A stretch of DNA of 64,000 nucleotides from positions 13,741 through 77,740 of the forward strand of contig CAZHNI010000004.1 in the NCBI GenBank assembly GCA_964533715.1, written 5' to 3'. The position numbers and the translations under genes were made by a program. Of this stretch, positions 3,441-63,634 are shown piece by piece; positions within the stretch are counted from its first letter, which is position 1, and each line of letters opens with the position of its first letter. The notes beneath the pieces are model-generated. The model was not told where the DNA came from, made no database searches, and worked only from the letters and a program-made list of their open reading frames with translations. Origin of the DNA: an uncultured Gammaproteobacteria bacterium. GTDB taxonomy: Bacteria; Patescibacteriota; Patescibacteriia; Magasanikbacterales; GWA2-37-8.

Positions 3441-3834
3441 CTGTCATTTCGAACGAATGTGAGAAATCTCTGTCCGTTATGTCACGCAATCACAATTACT
3501 ATGTTTATTTAATGGCAAGTGTGGCTTATGTGATATATATTGGAGTAACAAATGATCTAGTTCGGAGAGTCGAGGAACATAAGAACAAAATATCAGAAGG
3601 TTTTACTAAAAAATATAATTGTAATAAATTAGTTTACTACGAACATTTCGGCCATATTAATGACGCAATCTATCGAGAAACTGAAATAAAAAAATGGAGA
3701 CGAGAAAAGAAAGTTAAATTAATTGAGAGCGAGAATCCACGATGGAACGACCTGTATGACACCATTACGGACAGAGATTCCCCTAAGAGGGATCGCGAGA
3801 CCCCGTCGGCGCGAGCCTCGCTCGGAATGACAGT
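3441..3834. mobile_element. palindromic mini-element copy whose hairpin loop carries a GIY-YIG nuclease gene
   Basis: The left arm CTGTCATTTCGAACGAATGTGAGAAATCTCTGTCCGTT (3441-3478) is identical over 28 nt to the left arm of the copy at 63492. The right arm ACGGACAGAGATTCC...GCCTCGCTCGGAATGACAGT (3767-3834) matches the same copy's right arm. The GIY-YIG ORF sits exactly between the inner inverted repeats GAGAAATCTCTGTCCGTT and AACGGACAGAGATTCC. Confidence 0.75.
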
Positions 3835-3841
3835 AAAATAA
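3479..3841 (+). CDS. GIY-YIG nuclease family protein (UPF0213/YhbQ-like)
   Basis: The pattern YYVYLMAS...YIGVTNDLVRRVEEHK...KLVYYE matches GIY-YIG/YhbQ-type small nucleases. The C-terminal ~25 aa are encoded by the repeat right arm. Confidence 0.8.
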   Translation: MSRNHNYYVYLMASVAYVIYIGVTNDLVRRVEEHKNKISEGFTKKYNCNKLVYYEHFGHINDAIYRETEIKKWRREKKVKLIESENPRWNDLYDTITDRDSPKRDRETPSARASLGMTVK

Positions 3842-4241: not shown

Positions 4242-4377
4242 TTTGTATGTCTAAAAAGCCTGAACTTAGCGGATTTTTTGGGAGTTTTGTAAAAAAGGCC
4301 AAGGGCGTGATTTTGGCCACGGAAATCGCGCATATTTTAGATGAGGGGGGAGTGGGAGGAAAGAAATAAAGAAAAAT

Positions 4378-4986
4378 ATGTTGTATTTTGTAGTTGGTTT
4401 AACAATTGTTTTGGCTCTCGTGTATATACTGTTGGCTAGTTATTTTAATAAAAAGAAATTTAATAATGATGATTGGCCAAGAGATTTTTTGGAAGACAAA
4501 TTTCTTCGTTTATTTGAATTAGTTGTTTTTGGCCTGGTTGTTACTGTCGCTGGAATTCTTGTGGCAAGATATTGGCAGGCAAGGGACGATAATGATTTGA
4601 AGAAGAGCAAGGTGGATTTGGCTGATGAAATGAATATTTCATCTATATGTAATTTTTCTAAAAATACAATGACAACTAGTACTAAAACCGGAACATACAT
4701 CATAGGGTTACCAAGTGATTCTTTCGAAATATCCATTTATTTTAGTAATGCTGATTATTTATCCAAATTACCCACTTCTACGTATAAAGATTATATTGAA
4801 TGGATTAGGATGTTGCGTGGGGCAAACACCATAGTCGGCGGACTCCCGTTTGTACCCGAAGGAACTGTCTATAAGTATAATACATTTTTGAACGCGATGA
4901 ATGCCGTCGTGTCTAAAATTCCAAAAGAAATTAAGAGCCAAGAATTTTATAAAAAATTAATTAACGAAAAAGGACAATGTTTATAG
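4378..4986 (+). CDS. hypothetical membrane protein (two N-terminal TM helices)
   Basis: Hydrophobic N-terminus and an AT-rich gene with no recognised motif. Confidence 0.35.
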   Translation: MLYFVVGLTIVLALVYILLASYFNKKKFNNDDWPRDFLEDKFLRLFELVVFGLVVTVAGILVARYWQARDDNDLKKSKVDLADEMNISSICNFSKNTMTTSTKTGTYIIGLPSDSFEISIYFSNADYLSKLPTSTYKDYIEWIRMLRGANTIVGGLPFVPEGTVYKYNTFLNAMNAVVSKIPKEIKSQEFYKKLINEKGQCL

Positions 4987-5136: not shown

Positions 5137-7059
5137 ATGTCAAAGGTATTAGGTATAGACTTGGGTACAACTAACAGCTGTGTCGCCATTATTGAAGGCG
5201 GACAGCCAAAAGTATTAGAAAATAAAGAAGGGGCGCGAACAACCCCCAGTATTGTTGCTATTTCTAAATCGGGAGAACGATTGGTGGGGCAATTGGCTAA
5301 GCGTCAGGCGGTTACAAACCCGGAAAATACCCTGTTTTCCATCAAACGTCTTATTGGCCGCAAATGGGAAGATGCCGAAGTCCAGCGCGACCTTAAACTC
5401 ATGCCCTATAAAATTGTTAAGAGCGGCGAAGGTGTTAAAGTAACCATGCAGGGCAAAGATTATTCTCCACAAGAAATTTCGGCCATGGTATTACAAAAAA
5501 TAAAAGCTGATGCCGAAGAACGTTTGGGCGAAAAAGTAACTGAAGCGGTGATTACCGTGCCGGCCTATTTTGATGACGCCCAGCGCCAAGCCACGAAAGA
5601 CGCCGGTGAAATTGCTGGCCTTAAAGTGCTGCGTATTATTAACGAACCAACTGCCGCCGCCTTGGCCTATGGTTTTGATAAGAAAAAAGATGAAAAAATC
5701 GTTGTCTACGATTTGGGTGGTGGCACTTTTGATGTGTCTATTCTGGAAGTTAGTGCTGATTCCGTGCAAGTACTTTCTACAAACGGCGATACACACCTTG
5801 GCGGTGATGATTTTGATCAAGTTATTATTCGTTGGATTATTGATGAATTTAAACGTAGTGAAGGAATTGACTTGAGCAAAGACAATTTGGCGCTCCAACG
5901 TATTAAAGAAGCAGCGGAAAAAGCCAAAATTGAACTTTCAACCGCGCAAGAAAGTGAAATTAATCAACCATTTATTACCTCTGATGCCAATGGTCCAAAA
6001 CACTTGGTAATGAAGTTAACTCGAGCAAAACTAGAAGAACTAGTTGGCGAGTTGGTAGAAAAAACACTTGGTCCGGTGCGTCAGGCATTGTCGGATGCTA
6101 AACTATCGTCTAGCGATCTAAACGAGGTAGTAATGGTTGGCGGTATGACGCGTATGCCGCTTGTACTTCAAACCGTAGAAAAATTCTTTAACAAAAAACC
6201 AAACATTAGTGTAAATCCCGATGAAGTGGTGGCCGTTGGCGCGGCAGTACAAGGCGGTGTGCTCCGTGGTGATGTTAAAGACGTTTTGCTTCTTGATGTT
6301 ATTCCGCTTTCGTTTGGTATTGAAACCATGGGCAGTGTGATGACTAAGCTTATTGAACGTAACACCACCATTCCAACCTCCAAAACCCAAGTATTCTCCA
6401 CCGCGGCCGACAACCAACCGGGCGTGGAAATTCACGTACTCCAAGGCGAGCGACCAATGGCCGCGGACAATAAAACACTGGGACGTTTTATGCTCGACGG
6501 TATTCCACCGGCTCCACGTGGTGTACCGCAAATTGAAGTCAGTTTTGATATTGATGCAAACGGAATTCTTCACGTAAAAGCTAAAGATAAAGCGACCAAC
6601 AAAGAACAATCCATCCGCATCGAATCATCGTCTGGCCTTTCTAAAGAAGAAATTGAGAAAATGAAAAAAGATGCCGAAGCTCATGCCGATGAAGATAAAA
6701 AGAAGCAAGAGCTTATTGAAGCGCGCAACATTGCCGATACGATGGTGTATACCACCGAAAAAATGATGAAGGAAATTGAAGATAAAAAGGTCGCGAGCGT
6801 TACCGATGATGAGAAAAAAGCAGTGACTGAAGCGCTCGCTAAAGTAAAAGAAATAAAAGATAAGGATGATGTGGAAGCTATTAAAAAAGCGGCTGAGGAG
6901 TTATCTAAAGCAGCGCAGGCTGTTGGCACTAAAATGTACCAACAAGAACAGCAAAATAAAGGACCTTCCTCCGCTCCAGGAGGAGCTTCGGACGGCAAGG
7001 CCTCCGGTGAAGATGGCAAAGGGCCAATTGAGGGTGAAGTAGTTGATGATAAGAAGTAA
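5137..7059 (+). CDS. dnaK: molecular chaperone DnaK (Hsp70)
   Basis: Hsp70 signatures are present ([34 protein letters not shown]) and the length is 640 aa. Confidence 0.97.
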
Positions 7060-9301: not shown

Positions 9302-10414
9302 ATGAAAAAGTCTAATGGAGGGCCAAAAATAGTAATAGCGGTGTGTTTGGTTATACTTATCACGCTTACAATTGTAGCCATGGTGGTTGCCTCAACTCAA
9401 AAAACTTCAGCCAAGTCTGTACTCGATTTAACGCTTAGTAGTTTAAAGCAACAACCAACCATACAAGTAAATGGTATATTAACGGTATTTGATGCGGCTA
9501 AAAAGCCTTTTATTCCCGCGGTATATTTTTCTGTTTCCACGTCTCCGGAAAAAGCCACTGCTCTATGGAAGCTTATTCCACAAAATAATCGTCCAGAAAA
9601 AATTAAGCTCAGTGGCCTTGAAGCTTTGCGTTGGAAAAATACTCTTTCGCTGAATAATTTAAATAGTATTCTCGCCACGTTGTGGCCGCTCTATAAAGGC
9701 AGCAGCTCAACTCCCGAACAAATTGCTTTTTTTAAACCGCCGCTCAAAAAATTAACCGGTATATATGTCCAGCCAGTCATTGGCAAAACAGATTATTTGC
9801 CGCGTCAAATTACACTCGGTTGGTTTGCTTTGCAGGGCAAAAAAACCTATTCAGTTAGAATTGCCTTGCAATTAAGCGGTTTTATTTCACCTCAAAAAAT
9901 AGCCCCAGACAAAAACGCCCAAACGGTAGTAAAATCAGTTACATCTTCACAAGAGCAAACCAGCCAACAAGATAATTTTTTAGCTCAAAACCAACCGGTC
10001 AATTCTCCATCTGCTCCAGGCAGAGCAGTTGATGTATTTGGAAATGGTGGAGTACAATCTAAAATGGTAGACAATCTGGGTGTGTCTGCAGGCCGAGACG
10101 CGCAGCGCCTTAACGATCTCAAAGCGTTGCAAACCGCGCTTGAGTTATATTTTTCTGACCAAGGAGCGTATCCGTCTGGCGTTGGTATTGCGCTTGGGGT
10201 ATCTGGCCACGATTGTTTAAATAGCGATGGTTGGGCTTCGAGTGCCGATTGCCCGTATCCGTATATGATGCGCGTGCCTAAAGACCCAGGGTCGGCTACG
10301 TATGTGTATACACAAACCAATTTATCTTATTATATTGATGCTCAATTGGAAGGCTCACAGAATAGTCTCAGTGAGTCAATTAGGCTAACTCCAGCAGGAA
10401 TTGCAAATCGATAG
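9302..10414 (+). CDS. membrane-anchored protein with a pseudopilin/type IV pilin-like C-terminal domain
   Basis: Has an N-terminal TM helix. The C-terminal segment RDAQRLNDLKALQTALELYFSDQGAYPSG resembles GspG/pilin globular-domain starts, but there is no prepilin leader. Confidence 0.4.
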   Translation: MKKSNGGPKIVIAVCLVILITLTIVAMVVASTQKTSAKSVLDLTLSSLKQQPTIQVNGILTVFDAAKKPFIPAVYFSVSTSPEKATALWKLIPQNNRPEKIKLSGLEALRWKNTLSLNNLNSILATLWPLYKGSSSTPEQIAFFKPPLKKLTGIYVQPVIGKTDYLPRQITLGWFALQGKKTYSVRIALQLSGFISPQKIAPDKNAQTVVKSVTSSQEQTSQQDNFLAQNQPVNSPSAPGRAVDVFGNGGVQSKMVDNLGVSAGRDAQRLNDLKALQTALELYFSDQGAYPSGVGIALGVSGHDCLNSDGWASSADCPYPYMMRVPKDPGSATYVYTQTNLSYYIDAQLEGSQNSLSESIRLTPAGIANR

Positions 10415-25695: not shown

Positions 25696-25793
25696 TGTCA
25701 TTCTGAGGGAGTGAAACGACCGAAGAATCTCTGTCCGTTGATGATTGAGACAGAGATCCTTCCCCTCGACTTTACTCGGGGTCAGGATGACAT
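25696..25793. repeat. palindromic mini-element, medium form (copy 3)
   Basis: TTGTCATTCTGAGGGAGTGAAACGACCGAAGAATCTCTGTCCGTT...GAGACAGAGATCC...GGTCAGGATGACATT. It is about 85 percent identical to the copy inside rsmH. The right arm supplies the ATG (25787) of the downstream gene. Confidence 0.85.
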
Positions 25794-28839: not shown

Positions 28840-28953
28840 TGTCATTCCGACCGAAGTGGAGGAATCCCTTGATCCGTGAGTCACAACGGTCAAGCGATTT
28901 CTCGACTCGGCTTTCGCCTCGCCTGTCTGCGCAGGCAGGCTCGAAATGACAGT
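28840..28953. repeat. palindromic mini-element (copy 4)
   Basis: TTGTCATTCCGACCGAAGTGGAGGAATCCC...CTCGACTCGGCTTTCGCCTCGCCTGTCTGCGCAGGCAGGCTCGAAATGACAGT. It has the same terminal arms and a related GC-rich palindromic core. Confidence 0.8.
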
Positions 28954-37390: not shown

Positions 37391-38827
37391 TTGTTTGCCA
37401 TATTGGTATACTTAAGTAATTCAACTATGAAAGTATCTTTTTTTGGTGCCGCCGGCGAAGTTACCGGTTCTTGTAGTCTAATAGAAACAGGGCAAAATAG
37501 CATTCTCATCGATTGCGGAATGTTTCAGGGCAGTGATTTTAACGATGCCAAAAATCATAAACCGCTGCCGTTTGATCCTAAAACGCTCACACATGTTTTT
37601 ATTACTCACGCCCACCTCGATCATACCGGGCGTTTGCCGCTTTTGGTTAAACAAGGTTATAGCGGGTATTTTTATGCTACCGCCCCAACACTCGAGTTGG
37701 CCGAATTGGTTATGAAAGATGCGCACAATATAATGGTCTACGATAATAAAAAATTTGGTCGGACCATTTTATATAGTGAAGAAGATATTGCAGGGGTGAT
37801 GGGAAGAACTAAGGCTGTAAAATACGGAGAGGAGTTGAAATTTGGTGGTATTGTTGGTGAAAGGGATTCTTCGGCTACGCTCCGCTCCGCTCAGAATGAC
37901 AATCTGGTGGTGAGATTTCACGACGTCGGCCACATTTTTGGTTCTGCTTTTATCGAAATTAACGCCGAGGGTAAGAAAATTGTATTCTCCGGAGATGTTG
38001 GTAATGTTCATGTACCTATTTTACGCGATACCGAAGCTTTGCCGAGCAATCTTGACCTTTTAGTTTGTGAGTCAACCTACGGCGACCGCCTGCACGAAGT
38101 TCGCGCCACACGAGAAGAAATGATTGAAGAGGCGATACTCGATGGTGTTGGTAGGGGAGGAGTTCTCATGATTCCTTCGTTTGCTTTGGAGCGCACGCAA
38201 GAATTAATGTATGAACTTAATAAACTCATTGACCACAAACACAAGCTCGGTGGCATTCCCATTTTTTTAGATAGCCCACTCGCTATTGACGCAATTAAAG
38301 TGTATCGCAAATACCCCGAATATTACGACGAAAAAGCCAATGAATATTTTAAAGATGGTGATGATATTTTTGATTTTAAGAACTTAATTACTACATATTC
38401 GCGCGAAGAATCCATGAAAATAAATCATACCCTTGGGCCTAAAGTTATTATTGCCGGTGCCGGCATGATGAACGGGGGTAGAATTTTGCACCACGCTCTT
38501 CGTTATTTATCGGATGCGCGTAACACAATTTTGTTTATTGGTTACCAATCTCCCGGGACGCTGGGCAGACAAATTCAAGACGGTCATTCAACCGTAGAGG
38601 TATTGGGCGAGCGCGTGCAAGTAAAATGCAAAATAAATAATATTAGTGCGCTGTCAGCTCATGGTGATCAAAATAAGCTCGTCAGTTGGATTGGGGCGGC
38701 TAAACCAAAACGTGTTTATTTTAACCACGGGGAAGATAGTGCCGCTCAGGCAATTAGTAGTAAATTATCTAAAGAATTTAATGTGGAAGCAGTTATAGCT
38801 AAACCAAAATTAACTATTCAAGTATAA
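37391..38827 (+). CDS. MBL-fold beta-CASP ribonuclease (RNA-metabolising metallo-beta-lactamase)
   Basis: HxHxDH motif (THAHLDHTGRLP) plus beta-CASP motifs. Confidence 0.8.
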   Translation: MFAILVYLSNSTMKVSFFGAAGEVTGSCSLIETGQNSILIDCGMFQGSDFNDAKNHKPLPFDPKTLTHVFITHAHLDHTGRLPLLVKQGYSGYFYATAPTLELAELVMKDAHNIMVYDNKKFGRTILYSEEDIAGVMGRTKAVKYGEELKFGGIVGERDSSATLRSAQNDNLVVRFHDVGHIFGSAFIEINAEGKKIVFSGDVGNVHVPILRDTEALPSNLDLLVCESTYGDRLHEVRATREEMIEEAILDGVGRGGVLMIPSFALERTQELMYELNKLIDHKHKLGGIPIFLDSPLAIDAIKVYRKYPEYYDEKANEYFKDGDDIFDFKNLITTYSREESMKINHTLGPKVIIAGAGMMNGGRILHHALRYLSDARNTILFIGYQSPGTLGRQIQDGHSTVEVLGERVQVKCKINNISALSAHGDQNKLVSWIGAAKPKRVYFNHGEDSAAQAISSKLSKEFNVEAVIAKPKLTIQV

Positions 38828-38960: not shown

Positions 38961-38990
38961 GCAGGTGGGGAAAAGTGGTGAAACCACGGA
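38961..38990 (+). promoter_or_regulatory. candidate MraZ operator: GTGG repeats at 10-bp spacing (GTGGGGAAAA GTGGTGAAAC CACGG)
   Basis: Direct GTGG repeats with about 10-bp periodicity just downstream of the -10, resembling MraZ-box arrays. Confidence 0.35.
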
Positions 38991-39433
38991 TTTTTTCCAC
39001 GGATATTCACGGATTTTGTATGAGCGAAGAAGGGCTTGTTTTTAAAGAGATAACTCATGAGCTTATCGGTTGCGCCTACACTGTATTTAATGAGCTAAAG
39101 TTTGGCTACAGCGAAAAATATTATCAACGCGCTTACGCTCTTGAACTCCAGAAAAAAGCCCGTTCTTTTGTACGAGAGTTTCCAGTTCCTATTGCGTATC
39201 AAGGATGTTCGATCGGAAGATATATGCTTGATTTTCTGATTGATAACAAGATTATTGTTGAGTTTAAAGTTGGAAATGATTTTTCTCTGCAACATGTAGC
39301 GCAAGTTCTTGGATATCTCAAGGCTCTTAACAAAAAATTGGCGTTGATTATTCTGTTTTCTCCACACGGTGTAAAAGTTAAACGAATAATCAATTGATCG
39401 AATCCGTGTAAATCAGTGTAAAAGATCCGTGGT
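38981..39433. repeat. inverted-repeat-bounded cassette carrying a GxxExxY gene
   Basis: The left arm is CCACGGATTTTTTCCACGGATATTCACGGATT (38984-39016). The right arm is AATCCGTGTAAATCAGTGTAAAAGATCCGTGG (39401-39432), the imperfect reverse complement. The cassette lies between the promoter/MraZ boxes and the mraZ ATG. Confidence 0.5.
39020..39397 (+). CDS. GxxExxY protein (PD-(D/E)XK nuclease-like fold family)
   Basis: HELIGCAYTVFNELKFGYSEKYYQRAYALEL...FLIDNKIIVEFK matches the GxxExxY family. The ORF track starts at a GTG at 38975; an ATG at 39020 is also possible. Confidence 0.75.
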   Translation: MSEEGLVFKEITHELIGCAYTVFNELKFGYSEKYYQRAYALELQKKARSFVREFPVPIAYQGCSIGRYMLDFLIDNKIIVEFKVGNDFSLQHVAQVLGYLKALNKKLALIILFSPHGVKVKRIIN

Positions 39434-39942: not shown

Positions 39943-40956
39943 ATGCGCCACGTTCCAGTTCTACTTAATGAAGTAATTGCTGCCTTAGAGCCAAAATCTG
40001 GGATGAATTTTGTTGATTGTACTCTAGGCGATGGCGGTCATGCTGAAGCTATTTTGGAAAAAATAGCCCCGAGTGGAAAGTTGCTTGGAATCGACGCCGA
40101 TCCAGAATCACTCCTTCGCGCTAAACAATATTTGTACCGTTTTGGAGAGCGTGCTATGTATGTCCGCGATAATTTCGTACACATGAAAAAAATTGTTGCT
40201 GAAAACAATTTTGGTCATGTTGACGGAATACTTATGGATTTAGGTTGGTCAAGTCCGCAGTTTGCGGAACGGGGGAGAGGGTTTAGTTTCGAGAAGGATG
40301 AAAAATTAGACATGCGGTACGACCCCAACTGTCATTCTGAGGGAGGAACGACCGAAGAATCTCTGGCTCATTTGGAGAACGGGCAGAGATCCTTAATTCC
40401 GCTCAGGATGACATGTGAAACAGCTGCGGAGATAGTGAACGGTTATTCTGAAACAGAACTAAATCACATTTTTAAAACGTACGGTGAAGAAAAATTGTAC
40501 AAAGAAATTGCCGAAGCGATTGTTGCTACAAGGAACAAGGAACAAGGAACAAATAACAAAATCGAAACGACAAAACAATTAGTGGATATTATTTTGGAAG
40601 TTTACCGTAACAAATTAAATAGCACTAAAGAAATTCCCTGGATTGGTGGAATTCACCCGGCCACCAAGGTGTTTCAAGCTCTCCGCATTGAGGTTAACCA
40701 GGAATTAGCTGTTTTAAAAGAAGTTTTACCGCAATTAGTTGAAATTCTTTCTCCCGGTGGCCGTTTAGCAGTTATAACTTTCCACTCGTTGGAAGACAGA
40801 ACAGTAAAACAGTTTTTTCAAACAATAGCACATAAACAAATAAAATTAATTAATAAAAAACCGCTCACCGCAAGCGCAAAAGAATTAGCGGACAATTCAC
40901 GATCGAGAAGCGCAAAATTGCGAGTAGTGGAAAAAATAAATGAAAATAAAAATTAA
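39943..40956 (+). CDS. rsmH: 16S rRNA (cytosine1402-N4)-methyltransferase RsmH, with an in-frame ~29-aa palindromic-element insertion
   Basis: VPVLLNEV, DCTLGDGGHA, the FSF...LDMRYDP motif and TFHSLEDR are present. Residues ~129-158 (NCHSEGGTTEESLAHLENGQRSLIPLRMTC) are encoded by a repeat copy. Confidence 0.9.
   Translation: MRHVPVLLNEVIAALEPKSGMNFVDCTLGDGGHAEAILEKIAPSGKLLGIDADPESLLRAKQYLYRFGERAMYVRDNFVHMKKIVAENNFGHVDGILMDLGWSSPQFAERGRGFSFEKDEKLDMRYDPNCHSEGGTTEESLAHLENGQRSLIPLRMTCETAAEIVNGYSETELNHIFKTYGEEKLYKEIAEAIVATRNKEQGTNNKIETTKQLVDIILEVYRNKLNSTKEIPWIGGIHPATKVFQALRIEVNQELAVLKEVLPQLVEILSPGGRLAVITFHSLEDRTVKQFFQTIAHKQIKLINKKPLTASAKELADNSRSRSAKLRVVEKINENKN
40329..40414. repeat. palindromic mini-element (copy 5) inserted in-frame within rsmH
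   Basis: ACTGTCATTCTGAGGGAGGAACGACCGAAGAATCTCTGGC...GGGCAGAGATCC...GCTCAGGATGACATGT, about 85 percent identical to the copy at 25696. There is no stop codon in the rsmH frame. Confidence 0.85.
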
Positions 40957-44131: not shown

Positions 44132-44296
44132 TATAATTAAGTAAAATTTGTCACATTGTAATCACCGATCACAAAAACAATTATTTATTTCAGCTACTTA
44201 TATCCCAACTAGTGTTTAAATTAGCTAAAATATAATAAAATTTTTTTATAAATGGGGTTATAGCCATTGGGTGGGGTATAACCGTCGTTGTGGATT

Positions 44297-44319
44297 CCCG
44301 TTTTCACGGGAATGACAGT
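44297..44319. repeat. terminal fragment of the palindromic element (CCCGTTTTCACGGGAATGACAGT)
   Basis: Matches the right-arm consensus (GGAATGACAGT) with a short hairpin and has no left arm. Confidence 0.5.
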
Positions 44320-57693: not shown

Positions 57694-57731
57694 CTGTCAT
57701 TTCACTGCGCTACGCTCCAGTCGGAATGACA
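57694..57731. repeat. palindromic mini-element, minimal form (copy 6; ACTGTCATTTCACTGCGCTACGCTCCAGTCGGAATGACAAT)
   Basis: Only the terminal arms plus a short core. The right arm contains an in-frame ATG for the downstream gene. Confidence 0.7.
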
Positions 57732-63491: not shown

Positions 63492-63634
63492 TGTCATTTC
63501 GAACGAATGTGAGAAATCCCTGTCTGCGCCATGCCTGCGCATGCAGGAGGCAGGTCTGTTTCACTCAACGGACACTCATCACTATTGTGACAGAGATTCC
63601 TCGTCGGCTGCCAAGCCTCGCTCGGAATGACAGT
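63492..63634. repeat. palindromic mini-element, long form (copy 7, inverted relative to copy 1)
   Basis: TTGTCATTTCGAACGAATGTGAGAAATCCCTGTC...GACAGAGATTCC...GCCTCGCTCGGAATGACAGT. Its core CTGCGCCATGCCTGCGCATGCAGGAGGCAGG is the exact reverse complement of the copy-1 core. Confidence 0.85.

Follow-up and report, generated by a model that had tools for sequence, protein, structure and literature searches.

A TGTC-tagged palindromic repeat in frame within rsmH of a Patescibacteria genome

Introduction

Palindromes that lie in frame within protein-coding sequence have so far been treated mainly as a Rickettsia curiosity. A 64,000-nucleotide (nt) stretch of DNA from a Patescibacteria genome (41% G+C; referred to below as the window) raises the question of how such a repeat comes to stand inside a conserved gene in another lineage. 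The gene is rsmH, a gene of the essential type, which encodes the 16S rRNA m4C1402 methyltransferase and whose closest relatives in protein searches carry the label Candidatus Magasanikbacteria. The repeat is an 84-nt palindrome with TGTC tags at its ends. An original prediction had placed a palindromic element at 40329-40414, in the manner of a Rickettsia palindromic element (RPE); the element is there, within rsmH, and its boundaries lie one base inside those positions at each end (40330-40413).

The reading developed here, to which we give a probability of about 0.75, is that the insert is a translated, non-autonomous copy of an element resembling an insertion sequence (IS), which would have entered a permissive loop long ago and undergone turnover since. 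The phenomenon itself has been described before; what is new is the lineage. The added value lies in a pair of full and gene-less forms of the element, an rsmH site that has long been occupied with turnover, and synonymous conservation in the arms.

The insert and its host protein

The features of the rsmH locus are as follows.

39943-40956, + strand: rsmH (16S rRNA m4C1402 methyltransferase), 337 amino acids (aa), an intact open reading frame (ORF) hosting the element
40330-40413, + strand: palindromic element, gene-less copy, in frame in rsmH; 84 nt, 28 codons, CHSEGGTTEESLAHLENGQRSLIPLRMT
40330-40361, + strand: left arm, an NTS-like unit consisting of the TGTC tag, a 5-nt half stem ATTCT, a 17-nt loop, AGAAT and C
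40388-40413, - strand: right arm, an NTS-like unit as in the left arm, TGTCATCCTGAGCGGAATTAAGGATC; the tags point outwards
40355-40394, no strand: inner stem AAGAATCTCTG / CAGAGATCCTT with an 18-nt apical loop, delimited by folding and by comparison with the gene-bearing copies (3442-3832 of the window, L210, L211 and L213)

The RsmH product matches PF01795 (E 7.9e-100) and the solved RsmH structures 1wg8, 1m6y and 3tka (E 5e-54 to 9e-46). Each of these matches comes in two pieces that cover only query residues 1-129 and 159-335, whereas the structure residues are contiguous over the query gap (123 to 128, 134 to 139 and 165 to 168, respectively). The window protein therefore has about 29 additional residues, which follow immediately on the LDMRYDP motif and precede the ETAAE helix, as had been proposed for this junction.

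An AlphaFold2 model built on 72 sequences (mean predicted local distance difference test score, pLDDT, 87.5; predicted template modelling score, pTM, 0.84) gives the insert, at residues about 130-158, a pLDDT of about 48-61 between flanks above 90, with the helical domain starting at residue 161. Compared with solved RsmH structures, the model reaches a target-normalised template modelling (TM) score of 0.86-0.90, or 0.77-0.90 when METTL15 is included. In this model the insert lies in the linker between the methyltransferase (Rossmann) core and the helical domain, and the RsmH fold is retained. The split structure match agrees with this placement, which was the one predicted.

The reading frame is kept. 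Among the six frames of the rsmH copy, that of rsmH is the only one free of stops and the other five all carry them, which answers a question of frame bias raised by the original prediction; the downstream frame is preserved, as it had claimed. For the subfamily with TCTGAG termini and a length divisible by three, inspection of the sequence indicates that the frame reading CHSE...RMT is the only one open at both ends.

A repeat family with a long hairpin

The insert belongs to a family of TGTC-tagged palindromes with at least eight copies in the window, six intergenic and two in frame within genes. It begins TGTCATTCTGAG and terminates CTCAGGATGACA. The terminus GTCATYYYGA occurs 14 times in the window against 1.08 expected (13x). 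Two perfect occurrences of the 15-mer GTCATTCTGAGGGAG are present (25697 and 40331), and allowing up to three mismatches yields eight matches against 0.71 expected. Against the intergenic copy at 25696-25792, 73 of the 84 rsmH bases match (87%), so the earlier figure of about 85% is fair for matched bases; counting 15 gap columns, identity is 74% of alignment columns. The initial 36 nt are the same as in that copy except for two 1-nt indels. Each full copy combines an outer stem from the TGTCAT... termini with an inner stem GAATCTCTGTC / GACAGAGATTC.

As single-stranded DNA (ssDNA), the whole element folds into one long hairpin (-16.6 kcal/mol, z -3.4; 0 of 200 shuffles equal it). As RNA in context it reaches -35.4 kcal/mol (z -2.7), and the long hairpin forms on either strand. 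An arm alone fails to fold (-1.6 kcal/mol, z 0.4, about 0). Two independent hairpins in place of the long one were considered and ruled out by the ssDNA folds. Both rsmH arms read TGTC followed by AT(T/C)C(T/C), with a 5-bp local stem, a loop of 11-17 nt and a CTC tail; a relaxed arm pattern with a loop of up to 26 nt finds ten matches in the window, both rsmH arms included, against 0.06 expected. A terminator and promoter scan around the element gave nothing above chance, and a terminator role for the hairpin was dropped for that reason. Rfam and tRNA scans of the window gave no match.

The other members of the family and the associated hairpin in the window are listed here.

2582-2712, no strand: intergenic copy, 131 nt, containing a nested GC-rich palindromic module
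3442-3832, + strand: putative autonomous copy, intergenic, composed of left arm, GIY-YIG (Ssn-like) gene and right arm
3479-3841, + strand: GIY-YIG nuclease ORF, 120 aa, within the loop between the inner stems of 3442-3832
25696-25792, no strand: intergenic copy, 97 nt, nearest to the rsmH copy within the window
28840-28951, no strand: intergenic copy, 112 nt
37865-37901, - strand: decayed half copy in a beta-CASP/RNase J-like gene, translated in frame as RDSSATLRSAQND
44290-44317, - strand: canonical short NTS/CGTC-1-like hairpin, intergenic, TGTCATTCCCGTGAAAACGGGAATCCAC, with an 8-bp stem, a 4-nt loop and CCA
57695-57731, no strand: miniature variant, termini only, intergenic, 37 nt
63492-63632, no strand: intergenic copy, 141 nt, with arms 97-100% identical to those of the GIY-YIG-bearing copy at 3442-3832

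The lengths of the intergenic copies (97, 131, 112, about 37-38 and 141 nt) show no multiple-of-three constraint. The family is also present in intergenic DNA of every related genome examined.

Nesting is found among these copies. A 37-nt GC-rich palindromic module, CCTGCCTCCTGCATGCGCAGGCATGGCGCAGGCAGGG, is nested at 2610-2646 and 63518-63554 in opposite orientations (97% complementary), and a shorter relative stands in a third copy at 28925-28945; the module has the appearance of another small repeat, one whose insertion sites are copies of the first repeat. In L086, a related genome, intergenic copies at 4309-4488 and 9868-10010 are nested or abutting, with a second 5' terminus within the longer copy, consistent with elements inserting into or beside one another.

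The gene-bearing form

One copy, at 3442-3832, carries a gene. Its ORF matches PF01541, the GIY-YIG family, over residues 6-78 (E 3.7e-13). The arrangement of arm, GIY-YIG gene and inverted arm recurs in all four cases seen, namely the window copy and its close homologues L210, L211 and L213 from other Patescibacteria, and in all four the ORF is bounded by TGTCATYCYGA..GRATCTCTGTC on one side and GACAGAGATYC..YTCRGRATGACA on the other. The apical loop of the rsmH copy is equivalent to the site that the gene occupies in these putative autonomous copies. The gene-less palindromes look like non-autonomous derivatives of the gene-bearing element.

The Ssn proteins, about 94 aa long and made up of a single GIY-YIG domain, cut ssDNA just upstream of a hairpin repeat, known as NTS in Neisseria (CGTCATTCCCGCGMAVGCGGGAATCYRG) and as SRM generally (Chenal et al., 2025; PMC11893778). 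The ssn genes are typically flanked by NTS/SRM repeats, and the IS-like look of the NTS-ssnA-NTS arrangement was remarked on by the same authors (PMC11893778). The window nuclease is 45% identical to a 94-aa protein of N. gonorrhoeae over 89 residues, its full length (BLASTP E 2e-25). A tblastn search found this protein as a single homologue in an N. gonorrhoeae chromosome (E 5e-16), where it lies amid seven NTS repeats. The source record, L215 (NZ_CP119140.1), is a 2.17-Mb chromosome filed in a plasmid collection as a plasmid and nearly unannotated. NCBIfam gave no match for the window nuclease, and the nearest solved structure is UPF0213 BH0048, at E 4e-4 only. The window ORF does not stop ahead of the right arm of the element that carries it but continues across that arm, such that its last ~25 aa (RDSPKRDRETPSARASLGMTVK) are repeat-encoded; its homologues end earlier, at 87-100 aa.

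A second form of the repeat class coexists with the long copies in this genome. Within the window, the published SRM search pattern fits the hairpin at 44290-44317 and nothing else; as ssDNA this hairpin folds at -7.8 kcal/mol (z -3.4).

The rsmH site in related genomes

The phyletic spread of occupied sites is described from the best 120 RsmH matches. Most of these have a linker of 5-16 residues, and 14 of the 120 carry a linker peptide that starts C/R-H-S/C/Y/P-E/R; 13 of the 14 end in M-T, and the remaining carrier, P0105, ends RGNDRT. At the DNA level, the window gene was compared with nine Magasanikbacteria orthologues (n=10, L081 to L089 and the window). All ten genes have an element at the same codon, with MRY and three codons before it, two codons and TAA after it, and the family termini present. 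The resident elements span 69-126 nt, and every one is a multiple of three and free of stops in the rsmH frame. The insertion is thus not recent or private to the window genome, yet by its termini, its palindrome and its intergenic copies it is still a repeat.

The interiors of the ten copies fall into types. Group A (the window, L081, L083, L086 and L089) holds copies 70-87% identical to one another. Group B (L082, L084 and L085) has TGCGAG/CTCGCA termini and an interior unrelated to that of group A, the L085 copy being chimeric. L088 carries a third type, unlike group A in both termini (TGCGAG/CTCGCA here too) and interior. L087 is the clearest case of partial replacement: its host gene is 93% identical to that of L086 at the nucleotide level and all 33 nt of the L086 right arm are kept (33/33). 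In place of the left 45 nt stands an entire 85-nt element from a different subfamily, together with 8 nt, and the frame is kept. In a quick neighbour-joining tree of this one protein with the insert masked, carriers and non-carriers interleave, and sister lineages hold different subfamilies.

The linker between core and helical domain also holds other material. In further Patescibacteria, repeat-like linker peptides are found at the protein level, namely TTDYGLQTT; ELIINNYKLII or ELKITNYEL; and KSEIQNPKSE (P0018, P0020, P0075, P0111; P0036, P0053, P0061, P0070, P0078, P0100; P0010, P0019, P0043, P0112). A peptide of the first kind, TTDYRLQTT, stands within LepA of L086 as well, again at the protein level only. 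These cases suggest that several unrelated short DNA repeats settle in the same permissive loops. Together with element-related peptides at slightly shifted positions in more distant RsmH proteins, they argue that the RsmH linker is simply highly permissive.

Wider searches added little to the set of occupied sites. In a scan of a genome collection with the RsmH protein, the peptide patterns drew in mostly Shewanella, and only L001 and L002 served, as empty-site comparisons. A metagenome scan with the pattern of the rsmH/element junction gave, among the matches listed, four rsmH loci (L103, L106, L108 and L206), three of which duplicate loci already in the comparison; the rest were chance matches. 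The 68-aa segment spanning the insert, searched against 1.8 billion representatives, found only two short spurious ORFs, P0241 and P0242. Both are database proteins that consist purely of translated repeat arrays, for instance VIPSEAELSFRAKPNCHSERSRT four times.

In-frame copies in other genes

The element is not confined to rsmH. The beta-CASP gene at 37391-38827 holds the half copy in frame; in L086 the corresponding position is occupied by a complete copy (5824-5896), and in L081 and L083 by none. LepA of L081 (3890-3972, - strand) contains an in-frame copy, MSFRAKQSEVEESLTPSKRDPSTTVGMT, absent from LepA of the window, L083 and L086. This LepA copy is read in a different frame (MSFRAK...VGMT) and belongs to the TCCGAG subfamily, which has no stop there; usable frames are therefore subfamily-dependent.

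The gene order beta-CASP - mraZ - rsmH - ftsL-like is conserved synteny. Between beta-CASP and mraZ, at 38975-39397, lies a PD-(D/E)XK_3 (PF13366) gene. L085 and L086 have it too, but L081 and L083 lack it between the two neighbours, which makes it a small gene of variable presence within an otherwise conserved order.

Conservation of the arms

Group A elements are 79-87% identical where their host genes are 65-73% identical (39-51% at host third positions). Where both members of a pair encode the same residue, they agree at the third position in 78-100% of arm codons versus 42-67% of host-gene codons, with per-pair P of 0.004-0.06. The encoded peptides are wholly different between subfamilies, and because of this the insert has no conserved peptide function, its arm DNA being conserved instead. 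Such conservation agrees with a need for the copy to be recognised by its enzyme, or with homogenisation from other copies; by itself it is no demonstration of a cellular function.

Origin and maintenance of the insert

The sequence of events would run as follows. The full element is a TGTC-tagged arm, an Ssn-type GIY-YIG gene and an inverted arm. The element would have entered the permissive RsmH linker in an ancestor of several Magasanikbacteria lineages, after which only copies of multiple-of-three length, read in the one frame open at both ends, would have survived in rsmH; this filter on length and frame would be why every copy reads C/R-H-S/C-E ... M-T. Later, the occupied site would have been remodelled, with other subfamilies replacing all or part of the resident and some lineages losing the element. 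By analogy with the Ssn literature, the hairpin would extrude in ssDNA, the nuclease would cut 5' of TGTC on each strand, and an Ssn-like nuclease acting in trans on extruded single-stranded hairpins could mobilise gene-less copies. The chimeras in L087 and L085 could be accounted for by break-and-copy, in which the break is mended from a second element, though this is speculation. Mobility is suggested by three observations: copy number, patchy presence and the L087 replacement.

Several points weigh against this account. To our knowledge, GIY-YIG nucleases are not known for strand transfer or ligation, which leaves the formation of new copies unexplained. No target-site duplication or direct repeat was found beside any of the ~30 copies listed with flanks, nor was there a clean pair of empty and filled sites with alignable flanks. 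The long-copy arms, those in rsmH included, do not match the SRM pattern HGTCWYN(0-2)YYVSBRHN(0-5)WNVSBRGN(0-2)RNCYNB, and they are longer and not self-folding, whereas SRM units are self-folding hairpins of 20-50 nt; recognition of the rsmH copy by an Ssn-type enzyme is for these reasons an extrapolation. A neighbour-joining tree of a single protein gives no reliable count of gains, losses and replacements, and the order of these events is correspondingly tentative. The synonymous-site P values come from non-independent pairs with few codons, and gene conversion from other copies could yield the same arm conservation. Low AlphaFold confidence is no proof that the insert is exposed at the surface. 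Finally, translation in the cell is probable on one ground, the preservation of the frame.

The main rival explanation, possible but on balance doubtful, is recurrent, independent and site-specific insertion, in which each insertion is directed to precisely this position of rsmH, by the element or by its nuclease, and no single ancestral insertion took place. It would explain why sister lineages differ in the subfamily that occupies the codon (L081 and L082; L083 and L084/L085), why an intergenic copy of L085 shares 84-85% identity with the rsmH copies of group B, and why related peptides occur at slightly shifted positions of the linker in the distant proteins P0029, P0105 (CHPRENGDP...SHFRGNDR) and P0092 (VIPAKAGM); L087 would be a fresh event at an occupied site. 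The group A copies argue otherwise, as they share characters that are not seen in intergenic copies, for example the right arm GATCCTTCGTTCCACTCAGGATGACA of L081, L083 and L089, and are slightly nearer to each other than to any intergenic copy. It is on these two grounds that one old insertion followed by replacements and losses is favoured. Moreover, the empty rsmH sites of L001-L004 have no common motif resembling a target, no common target sequence was found in the flanks of the intergenic copies, and self-targeting of an already occupied site accounts for the replacements without any specificity for rsmH.

A stronger form of the old-insertion account, which we consider rather unlikely, is that the rsmH copy is a long-lived resident repeatedly overwritten by nuclease-driven copy-and-replace, a break beside the hairpin being repaired from another element. 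If true, Patescibacteria would harbour active mobile elements of the Ssn-type GIY-YIG kind, with occupied sites as their landing pads, and L086/L087 would be a snapshot of the long-sought propagation mechanism of CGTC-tagged repeats (CGTC-REPs) and RPEs.

It is improbable that the hairpin is kept for a role of the nucleic acid itself, either as a structure in the mraZ-rsmH-ftsL transcript that acts on its translation or stability, or as an Ssn site that restricts recombination or transformation where the division cluster begins, a role that has been proposed for NTS in Neisseria. The palindrome does persist through subfamily replacement while the peptide is not conserved, synonymous sites of the arms are more conserved than the host gene, and NTS repeats modulate the integration of transforming DNA in Neisseria (PMC11893778). 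Against such a role, many close relatives lack the element and have a loop of 5-9 residues, the arm conservation is equally expected from nuclease recognisability or conversion, and there is neither a terminator-like tail after the hairpin nor an Rfam match in the window.

Very little speaks for the 84 nt being untranslated, be it that they are excised from the RNA as an intervening sequence or that the gene is a pseudogene or arose in assembly. A strong hairpin can serve as a substrate of RNase III and these genomes are metagenome assemblies, but ten independent assemblies all hold stop-free multiples of three despite unrelated interiors, every catalytic or structural residue invariant among the 72 aligned RsmH sequences is kept in the window protein, and cleavage of a hairpin in mRNA without religation would destroy the message.

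Least credible of all is an ordinary lineage-specific RsmH loop with a secondary or coincidental likeness to a repeat. The original prediction had named an ancestral loop as the alternative should orthologues from unrelated lineages carry a homologous segment, and this test is tripped in part, as several related orthologues share the segment at one position (the nine above); still, this explanation is contradicted by the 36-nt stretch that matches the intergenic copy but for two 1-nt indels, perfect family termini at both ends, a significant long hairpin, the intergenic presence of the family in every related genome examined and its presence inside two other genes. Repeat hallmarks such as these, and absence of the segment from most RsmH of the phylum and from all solved structures, identify an old element insertion and not an ancestral loop.

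Significance

These data place in-frame palindromes in no fewer than three housekeeping genes of Patescibacteria, whose genomes are ultra-small. The form is unusually clean, a short palindrome with a loop that is either empty or occupied by the Ssn-like nuclease gene. No enzyme behind CGTC-tagged repeats was known in 2013, and a candidate (Ssn) appeared only in 2025. A shared rsmH site occupied by different subfamilies offers natural before and after states for studying how such elements spread. The inserts also inflate and diversify conserved proteins in metagenome-assembled genomes, which is relevant to annotation and to marker-gene alignments. Repeat families of this kind seed spurious ORFs such as P0241 and P0242 into protein databases, a further annotation issue.

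Comparison with known systems

The closest parallel is the Ssn/SRM system. Here, as there, a small single-domain GIY-YIG protein (homology beyond the published criterion of E < 1e-10) is encoded by a gene with its cognate repeat on either side (four of four cases), the repeat starts (C/T)GTC followed by ATTCC...GGAATC, its many copies are mostly intergenic, and the window contains one canonical SRM (44290-44317). The nuclease of the window is known from its sequence, and activity of the Ssn type, sequence-specific and confined to ssDNA as opposed to dsDNA or RNA, would be ascribed to it by analogy. Unlike SRM, the two arms described here pair into one palindrome of 70-140 nt, and unlike the NTS-ssn arrangement, the nuclease gene sits in the apical loop, which gives a tidy pair of full and gene-less forms. 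NTS are seldom intragenic in N. meningitidis (2%; PMC11893778), whereas in-frame coding copies are prominent here. The host is a member of the Patescibacteria, which go unmentioned in the text of the Ssn study (PMC11893778).

CGTC-REPs, whose tag is often TGTC and may also be CCTC, include dRS3 of Neisseria and RPE-4 and RPE-6 of R. conorii (Di Nocera et al., 2013; PMC3733652). They are mostly inverted dimers able to form one large stem-loop, their in-frame intragenic copies encode 20-30 residues of housekeeping genes, and the 2013 study found no dedicated enzyme for them (PMC3733652). The present family shares with them the terminal CGTC/TGTC tag with a stem opening AT, inverted arms, and in-frame copies in rsmH (28 residues), beta-CASP and LepA. 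The arms in rsmH differ from the 8-9 bp stem, 4-5 nt loop and CCA tail of CGTC-REPs, which only the 44290 hairpin fits, and here the nuclease gene lies within the element.

The likeness to RPE-1 is more general. As far as it is summarised in a later paper (Ogata et al., 2000, 2002, via PMC3733652), RPE-1 is also an in-frame palindrome tolerated in conserved genes, with intergenic copies as well; by the same summary it is longer and Rickettsia-specific, and it is by the tag only that the present element is set apart from it. The original comparison with Rickettsia therefore holds for an in-frame palindrome tolerated as an extra loop and reaches beyond a likeness in behaviour, though not for RPE-1 as the model, since the TGTC tag points to RPE-4 and RPE-6 as the likely relatives.

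With REPIN/RAYT systems (PMC3116915, PMC3337134) the element shares an inverted doublet of short palindromes, the lack of target-site duplication, and a large excess of non-autonomous copies over the one enzyme gene, which has these repeats on its flanks. It differs from them in having TGTC instead of GTAG and, inside the full copies, a GIY-YIG enzyme without known transposition chemistry instead of the IS200/IS605-like HUH tyrosine transposase, RAYT. It also differs from a classical miniature inverted-repeat transposable element of a DDE transposon in having no flanking target-site duplication.

Prior descriptions of the element in this phylum were not found in the limited literature searched, which is weak evidence of absence. 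The TGTC tag groups it with the CGTC-REPs (RPE-4, RPE-6 and dRS3) and with Ssn/SRM, and by these comparisons it is best regarded as a relative of the Ssn/SRM-CGTC-REP class with a modified bipartite palindrome, and not as a canonical SRM.

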